Assembly (NCBI RefSeq): GCF_030384885.1
Contig: NZ_CP128613.1
Direction: 5' to 3' (one strand)
Length of the DNA stretch: 64,000 nucleotides
Source of the DNA: Escherichia coli
GTDB lineage: Bacteria > Pseudomonadota > Gammaproteobacteria > Enterobacterales > Enterobacteriaceae
The position numbers were made by a program, and so were the translations under genes. Shown piece after piece: positions 4,283-4,443 of the stretch (positions are counted from its first letter, which is position 1; each line of letters starts with the position of its first letter). The notes under the pieces are model-generated. The model saw nothing but the letters and a program-made list of their open reading frames with translations, searched no databases and was not told the origin of the DNA.

Positions 4283-4443
4283 AAAGATGAGATAATATTC
4301 GAAACGCTACGGCGATAGCAAGTAGCATCCCCTTCAGTTCAATATAAAAGTTCAAGAATCAACCAGAGGAATCAAAAAATGTTAATGATTGCACTGCAAA
4401 GTAAAACCACATTAACATTTATGAAATAGGAGTCAGGGAAAGC

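Follow-up and report, generated by a model that had tools for sequence, protein, structure and literature searches.

A candidate weak terminator hairpin between a fimbrial operon and the Fur-repressed fhuA promoter of Escherichia coli

Organization of the mrcB-fhuA locus

The stretch of DNA analyzed here, 64,000 nucleotides of Escherichia coli and hereafter called the window, is identical in sequence to E. coli 2013C-4282 (NZ_CP027579.1). Between mrcB and fhuA, the latter followed by fhuCDB, it contains a four-gene fimbrial operon, and all these genes are located on the minus strand (Table 1). The proteins encoded by the operon carry the Pfam domains Usher, PapC_N, PapC_C, PapD_N, PapD_C and Fimbrial. 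In the adhesin-type subunit, encoded by the last gene, the Fimbrial domain spans residues 194-335, and the MrkD-like receptor-binding domain was found only below the threshold. The GC content of the operon is 38-43%, as compared with 50-60% in the flanks. The TAA stop of the adhesin gene occupies positions 4446-4444 and the ATG of fhuA positions 4229-4227, leaving a spacer of 214 nt on the minus strand; this agrees with the original prediction on this junction, which had placed the stop about 215 bp upstream of the fhuA start on the same strand.

Chaperone-usher fimbriae of the ECSF_0165 type constitute part of the gamma* clade (Wurpel et al. 2013, PMC3559732). By its domains, synteny and locus-tag offsets, the island is a known, uncharacterised operon of this type. 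It shows the same four genes (major subunit, chaperone, usher and adhesin) at the mrcB-fhuA position, which is also where E2348/69 and ST131 strains have the operon, and its usher gene is found 13 genes past that of the Yad usher, as in the pairs ECSF_0152/0165, EC958_0282/0295 and E2348C_0142/0155. It differs in that the allele of the window is rare, its DNA being about 84% identical to that of the common ST131-type across the end of the adhesin gene and the start of fhuA. In the literature, no paper naming the locus tags of the neighbours of the operon was found. In a derivative of EPEC E2348/69 the chaperone gene is annotated as frameshifted (L005, 2768-3485) and the operon is therefore probably non-functional there, though the hairpin at its 3' end is retained. 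At a different place in the window, yadE (30659-31888) is annotated as a pseudogene with an internal stop.

Among 5426 complete E. coli genomes, the island was located between mrcB and fhuA in 571, and a K-12-type mrcB-fhuA spacer of 219 bp in 4849; a third, empty allele of the spacer was not found in this set. The allele of the window was present in only two of the genomes, 2013C-4282 and 2017-02-2CC. Genome and metagenome searches yielded five versions of the adhesin-fhuA spacer, which represent four haplotypes: those of the window, of 2017-02-2CC (one base off the window), of the ST131-type, of E2348/69 and of SCPM-O-B-8794. A scan of GTDB species representatives with the adhesin protein recovered a single locus and no more. 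The metagenome scan with the conserved 3' end of the adhesin gene returned 13 contigs and no new allele, as 12 of them carried the three other haplotypes and the remaining one was partial, too short to show the hairpin. One contig from a human gut metagenome (L014) joins the hairpin and upstream region of the ST131-type to an E2348/69-like fhuA 5'UTR (ACACCAGAGAAATACC), a hybrid arrangement that places recombination breakpoints inside the spacer; the same contig has a variant fhuA start (ATGGCACCTTCC). When plasmids (PLSDB) were searched with the usher, no close relative appeared except in CP054241.1, at 160653-163124 and with 86.6% identity. The plasmid label of this 834-kb E. coli record is probably wrong, the likelier identity being a chromid or a fragment of the chromosome.

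Table 1. Features of the mrcB-fhuA locus, in coordinates of the window.
Feature	Position	Strand	Evidence or remark
mrcB	12188-9654	(-)	
Strong hairpin GCUCUCCGC-UGAU-GCGGAGAGC	9622-9643	(-)	Right after the mrcB stop; dG -20.8 kcal/mol, z = -6.3; without U-run
AT-rich regulatory region, fimbrial operon	9321-9653	(-)	400-nt composition bin 9201-9600 with 27% GC
Major subunit, fimbrial operon	9320-8754	(-)	GC of operon 38-43%
Chaperone, fimbrial operon	8708-7992	(-)	
Usher, fimbrial operon	7950-5476	(-)	
Adhesin-type subunit, two-domain, 336 aa	5454-4444	(-)	Last island gene; ORF list, RefSeq annotation of 2013C-4282
AU-rich hairpin, 53 nt	4372-4424	(-)	Folding, conservation; candidate weak terminator or 3'-end hairpin
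5' arm of perfect 11-bp inverted repeat, AAATGTTAATG	4410-4420	(-)	Shuffle test
Palindrome TTGCACTGCAA	4389-4399	+ strand numbering	Hairpin apex; not conserved in other alleles
3' arm of perfect 11-bp inverted repeat, CATTAACATTT	4377-4387	(-)	Collinear with K-12 ATTAACCCTTT
U-run TTTTTTGATT	4370-4379	(-)	Abuts the stem; first three U can pair with upstream AAA
Counterpart of distal HypT operator	4368-4383	(-)	Alignment; here AACATTTTTTGATTCC, in K-12 AACCCTTTCTTTTCA, 7/15 identical
Hyper-divergent patch, -38 to -81	4309-4352	(-)	Sharp boundary at 4308/4309
Alternative consensus-predicted sigma-70 promoter TTGCTA-18-TATTAT	4292-4321	(-)	Scan; in K-12 TTGCGA-18-TATTAT
fhuA core promoter	4271-4306	(-)	-35 region ~4306-4301, -10 TATAAT 4283-4278, TSS 4271
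Fur box CTTTATAATAATCATTCTC	4268-4286	(-)	14/19 to GATAATGATAATCATTATC; -15 to +4, over the -10 box and TSS
Proximal HypT site TTACGTTATCATTCA, +7 to +21	4251-4265	(-)	Footprint of PMC6397515 mapped by sequence
fhuA coding sequence	1986-4229	(-)	fhuCDB next

A hairpin at the end of the fimbrial operon

The only structure that the original prediction had seen in the interval 4283-4443 was a short palindrome. This palindrome turned out to be merely the apex of a 53-nt hairpin that is built on a perfect 11-bp inverted repeat and is followed by a U-run. The hairpin is positioned 20-75 nt past the adhesin stop, on the coding strand, and its stem-loop (CAUUAACA) is continued directly by the U-rich tract (UUUUUUGAUU). 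In the outer helix, UCA.AAAUGUUA / UAACAUUU..UGA, pairing of UCA with UGA lengthens the 11-bp repeat to the full extent of 4424-4372. Enclosed by the outer arms are 22 nt that pair only imperfectly, the inner helices being broken by a bulge and a mismatch. From the 18 pairs of the minimum free energy (MFE) structure only three are G-C pairs. Inverted repeats of at least 11 bp arose in 6 of 2000 dinucleotide shuffles of the spacer (P = 0.003). Folding of the 61-nt RNA segment gave an MFE of -12.6 kcal/mol (z = -2.9), a value equalled or bettered by 3 of 200 shuffles. Both in this short segment and in a context of 164 nt, when the whole 4283-4443 interval was folded, the hairpin was the MFE and the centroid structure, although the fold of the complete interval does not stand out (z = -0.8).

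Other kinds of element were looked for in the same region. A small ORF within the hairpin (ATG at 4418, 19 codons) was rejected, being devoid of a Shine-Dalgarno sequence and broken in the E2348/69 and SCPM alleles, and no meaningful ORF of at least 20 aa was found in the spacer. The Rfam scan of positions 3800-5000, with E values up to 10, gave only chance-level matches to eukaryotic snoRNAs and miRNAs (E of at least 0.19). A dispersed repeat of the REP/MITE kind was also discarded, because the element is single copy, at one place per genome in the 571 genomes.

Conservation of the pairing

The five alleles all fold to one long hairpin at the same location, despite their differing inner sequence and length. 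The energies were -12.6 kcal/mol for the window, -13.2 for 2017-02-2CC, -17.0 for the ST131-type, -22.4 for E2348/69 and -21.4 for SCPM-O-B-8794, with z values ranging from -1.8 to -5.5. The other haplotypes are 54-64% identical to the window over the hairpin region, and over the 19 nt that follow the stop the identity is 10/19. The outer helix of 14 pairs had 92.9% of its cells paired over the five alleles, slid registers reaching at most 49%; the same helix was recovered independently by RNAalifold, and 19 of 500 shuffles attained the observed pairing. Two A-U pairs of this helix are replaced in E2348/69 by compensatory G-C pairs and a third one by G-U, while the sole difference of 2017-02-2CC from the window turns a G-U pair into A-U. 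With a sample of no more than five alleles, and with E2348/69 as the one lineage that contributes both compensatory pairs, the evolutionary support for the pairing is read from these alignments as real but modest. The other alleles have shorter U-runs (UUUUCG, UUUAUG) that are taken up entirely in pairing, a stronger stem being obtained at the expense of U-run length.

Instead of acting as a terminator, the hairpin may have been selected as an RNA element of another kind, either a block to 3' exonucleases or an RNase III/E processing site, which would act after termination elsewhere or after read-through and would define the 3' terminus of the stable fimbrial mRNA or uncouple this mRNA from fhuA. 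The helix runs on through the U-run by means of the UCA/UGA and AAA/UUU pairs, and the bases breaking the U-run of E2348/69 and SCPM-O-B-8794 coincide exactly with those engaged in pairing, so that a long double-stranded stem fits better than a free U-tract. Moreover, the stems, imperfect and with at least 18 pairs, are RNase III-like in size, and the mrcB ends of both haplotypes, with and without the island, carry strong hairpins that lack U-runs. However, all the alleles retain at least three U directly after ...CA, and there is no rut-like sequence to back Rho termination downstream. A role restricted to RNA stability or processing is regarded as rather unlikely.

Comparison with the terminators of the window

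The strength of the hairpin was assessed against the best unbranched hairpin with a T-tract found within 150 nt past each of the 52 annotated genes of the window. This benchmark replaced the raw hairpin energy, which does not discriminate, given that 442 of the 854 U-tract sites of the 64-kb window reach -7.4 kcal/mol with branched 60-nt folds. Candidates were ordered by a composite index with coefficients of the d'Aubenton-Carafa/Lesnik style, which is good only for ranking inside the window. The adhesin hairpin scored -14.1 and ranked 14 of the 52 gene ends, under all seven canonical terminators (dksA, hpt, speD, acnB, yacH, lpdA and aceF, with +7.5 to +45.5); the non-terminator gene ends were mostly between -23 and -58, that is, mostly worse than the adhesin hairpin. 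Its energy is marginal, -7.4 to -12.6 kcal/mol, and its energy density amounts to 0.19 kcal/mol per nt versus 0.46-0.83 in the seven canonical terminators. The weight of its T-tract, 4.62, is among the six highest of the 52 gene ends and in the range of the true terminators of the window, but this T-richness is not independent evidence, since the collinear K-12 sequence CCCTTTCTTTTCA is also T-rich and forms no hairpin.

Compared with the intrinsic terminators of E. coli, in particular with weak or leaky ones that have an upstream A-tract, the adhesin hairpin is alike in lying on the coding strand 3' of the last stop of the operon, in its stem-loop with six consecutive U directly behind it, in an upstream A-tract able to pair with these U and in a pairing maintained among the alleles, few as these are. 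It differs in its stem, which is AU-rich, long and interrupted and departs from loop-length and stem-quality rules such as those of the built-in terminator scan; the compact GC-rich stem, the short loop and the energy per nucleotide of a typical intrinsic terminator are all lacking. The built-in scan of the minus strand of 4283-4443 found no GC-rich hairpin followed by a T-run, as had been stated in the original prediction, and it missed the adhesin hairpin. A rut region for Rho was likewise sought in the 214-nt spacer, and none was found, the sliding 78-nt windows having 14-22% C and 10-23% G.

The other fimbrial operon of the window was included in the scan. Its end, from the yad operon to panB (27104-27214, 111 nt, same strand), contains no candidate hairpin with a T-tract. 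On the 3' side of yadN, the gene for the yad major subunit, a hairpin (CAGGGAAUAAUAUUGAUAUUUCAUACUACUCCCUG) followed by UUUUUUU at about 20530-20572 (+) has a composite of -3.1 and resembles the attenuator often seen after fimbrial major-subunit genes. Nothing comparable is present in the island operon behind its own major-subunit gene.

From the low rank of the hairpin it could be argued that the island has no effective terminator. Fimbrial transcripts would then run into fhuA, fhuACDB would receive Fur-independent transcription and the hairpin would be irrelevant to the polymerase. Such a view is consistent with the lack of a GC-rich hairpin with a T-run, with a candidate that stays under every canonical terminator of the window and with the absence of a rut-like C-rich, G-poor stretch in the 214 nt. 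The yadC-panB junction, which in the same window has no terminator-like site, indicates in addition that unterminated ends of fimbrial operons occur, and hence that such junctions are not exceptional. It would leave unexplained, however, why a helix of 11-14 bp has been kept by compensatory changes in alleles that are 25-50% diverged here, and termination is classically signalled by such a run of six U right behind the stem. Complete lack of termination is considered doubtful. The claim of the original prediction that the fimbrial operon, for want of a terminator, could read through into fhuA holds as far as a strong GC-rich terminator is concerned, but it is weakened by the conserved hairpin and U-run 20-75 nt past the stop, which would represent a leaky intrinsic terminator or a 3'-end hairpin. 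Read-through would be possible, though it is not implied.

The fhuA promoter region

Footprints of HypT on the fhuA promoter have been described at +7 to +21 (TTACGTTATCATTCA) and at -111 to -97 (AACCCTTCCTTTTCA) by Jo et al. 2019 (PMC6397515), the transcription start site (TSS) used in that work coming from an E. coli promoter compilation. The first of these sequences is found in the window at 4265-4251, which fixes the TSS at 4271, the -10 box at 4283-4278 and the 19-mer of Fur at -15 to +4. The stretch 4250-4282, formerly labelled as the Fur box, hence includes the proximal HypT site, whereas the best Fur match is at 4286-4268, and the fhuA core promoter already takes in 4283-4308 (-12 to -37). 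A promoter TTGCGA-18-TATTAT had been predicted inside the RNAP-bound mrcB-fhuA spacer by Shimada et al. 2014 (PMC3946193); its counterpart is listed in Table 1. A further paper on a fhuA promoter (PMC3621691) concerns Vibrio cholerae and was set aside as not applicable.

Comparison of the fhuA 5' region with K-12 gave 78 identical positions out of 79 over 4308-4230, the segment that comprises the core promoter, the Fur box and the 5'UTR. The sole difference is located at 4289 (-18), a position that is polymorphic among strains, and the sequence of the Fur box is the same in K-12 and in all the island alleles. The Fur box is intact, as proposed originally, and fhuA would accordingly be expected to keep its own Fur-repressed promoter. 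With neither a strong GC-rich terminator nor an altered Fur box being found, the original prediction was not overturned on these two points. Its conclusion that the island left the native iron regulation of fhuA in place applies to the elements shared with the Fur-repressed promoter of K-12 and Salmonella, namely the -10 TATAAT, the TSS, the Fur box, the proximal HypT site and the 5'UTR. It does not extend upstream of -37, where the window allele has diverged (17/44). That divergence had been overlooked, as had the displacement of the distal HypT site by the 3' arm of the hairpin and the U-run.

The divergent patch, 4352-4309, matches K-12 at 17 of its 44 positions, E2348/69 at 17 and the ST131-type at 19, and it is found in only 2 of the 5426 genomes. 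Its abrupt end at -37 looks like a recombination breakpoint, or like the place at which strong constraint starts with the -35 element.

Further upstream, the distal HypT motif of K-12 sits exactly at -111 to -97. Where AACCCTT(C/T)CTTTTCA would be expected at these positions, the window has ACATTTTTTGATTCC, with 7 of 15 bases identical and a 1-nt insertion, so that by alignment the operator appears not to be preserved; the other island alleles keep 9-11 of the 15 bases. It is the 3' arm of the hairpin and the U-run that occupy the place of the distal HypT site of K-12 and Salmonella. One could imagine that the hairpin was formed from island DNA together with the pre-existing sequence of the distal HypT operator, that HypT repression of fhuA was thereby weakened or rewired and that fhuA became partly coupled to fimbrial transcription. 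This combined scenario is very improbable. If true, the HOCl-responsive looping repression by HypT would be altered in about 10% of E. coli, including ST131 and EPEC E2348/69, and the leaky terminator would be the route by which fhuA is coupled to fimbrial transcription.

Junctions of the island

Clear homology to K-12 begins at ATTAAC, about position 4385-4386 (-114), and downstream of it the DNA aligns collinearly with the region between mrcB and fhuA in K-12. Hence, the hairpin has its 5' arm from the island, while its 3' arm is collinear with the core sequence. At the other junction, homology to K-12 stops a few bases past the mrcB stop. At the place of the strong mrcB-end hairpin of the window, K-12 carries a hairpin of unrelated sequence, ACCGGAUGGC-GAGUU-GCCAUCCGGU, with -20.9 kcal/mol and also without a U-run (in L002, the mrcB-end hairpin is at 1361-1420). 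The mrcB hairpins resemble the adhesin one in being stem-loops right after a stop, upstream of fhuA and on the same strand, but they are GC-rich and strong and have no U-run, whereas the adhesin hairpin combines a weak stem with a good U-run.

Direct repeats (CATCTAAG) and, on either side, ATTAAC border the segment with the K-12 mrcB-end hairpin, and this suggests that the segment is itself a small inserted element. ATTAA(C/T) is present at both junctions of the island as well, as TAATTAAT after mrcB (9653-9659) and as CATTAAC at the 3' arm of the hairpin (4381-4386), and could reflect a target duplication or microhomology used in an insertion or a deletion.

These junctions raise the question of whether the inverted repeat is a relic of insertion at the DNA level with no role in RNA: chance complementarity of an island end to ATTAAC... 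in the target, a target sequence duplicated in inverted orientation or a palindrome for protein binding. The collinearity of the 3' arm with core K-12 ATTAACCCTTT, the start of clear K-12 homology exactly there (-114) and the ATTAA of the mrcB-side junction (TAATTAAT) would all be in line with this origin. Nevertheless, the arms are 22 nt apart in the window and about 35-38 nt apart in the other three haplotypes, and a spacing that varies in this way makes a protein site unlikely. The inner sequences differ and yet each allele keeps inner helices of its own, the compensatory changes argue for selection on the pairing, and the element is single copy and belongs to no known repeat or Rfam family. 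An origin of this kind without any function in RNA is quite improbable.

Discussion

The reading preferred here divides the interval in two parts, a 3' UTR with a weak terminator hairpin and, behind it, the ancestral fhuA region. The layout, the conserved and covarying hairpin, its marginal energy and the match of promoter and Fur box to K-12 are observed. That transcription terminates here, how efficiently it does so, that the fimbrial promoter is silenced and what follows for fhuA we infer from the sequence, and we give the whole an even chance of being correct. The first 75 nt past the adhesin stop would be the 3' UTR of the fimbrial operon, closing in the hairpin 4424-4372 and its U-run. 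RNA polymerase coming from the operon would pause at the U-run while the hairpin zips, and a fraction of the transcripts would be released at about 4376-4368, some 100 nt ahead of the fhuA TSS. Termination in the window allele is probably partial, as the base of the stem is made almost entirely of A-U pairs. The extended stem, with its AAA/UUU and UCA/UGA pairs, may in addition shield the released RNA from 3' exonucleases. From about 4385 downstream the DNA would be the ancestral upstream region of fhuA, which retains its own Fur-repressed promoter. Residual read-through would provide a small Fur-independent input, and only when the AT-rich, probably silenced fimbrial promoter is active.

Taken as a whole, the junction is an ordinary operon arrangement. 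With a hairpin of its own at the end of the island and an autonomous, K-12-like, Fur-controlled promoter in front of fhuA, no unusual regulatory coupling need be assumed. The finding that the fimbrial island closes with its own weak, evolutionarily maintained hairpin and U-run is of little import beyond annotation. For specialists, interest may lie in the distal HypT site, which is altered in all the island lineages, including ST131 and EPEC E2348/69, and in the sharply bounded divergent block of the rare allele, which ends exactly at promoter position -37.
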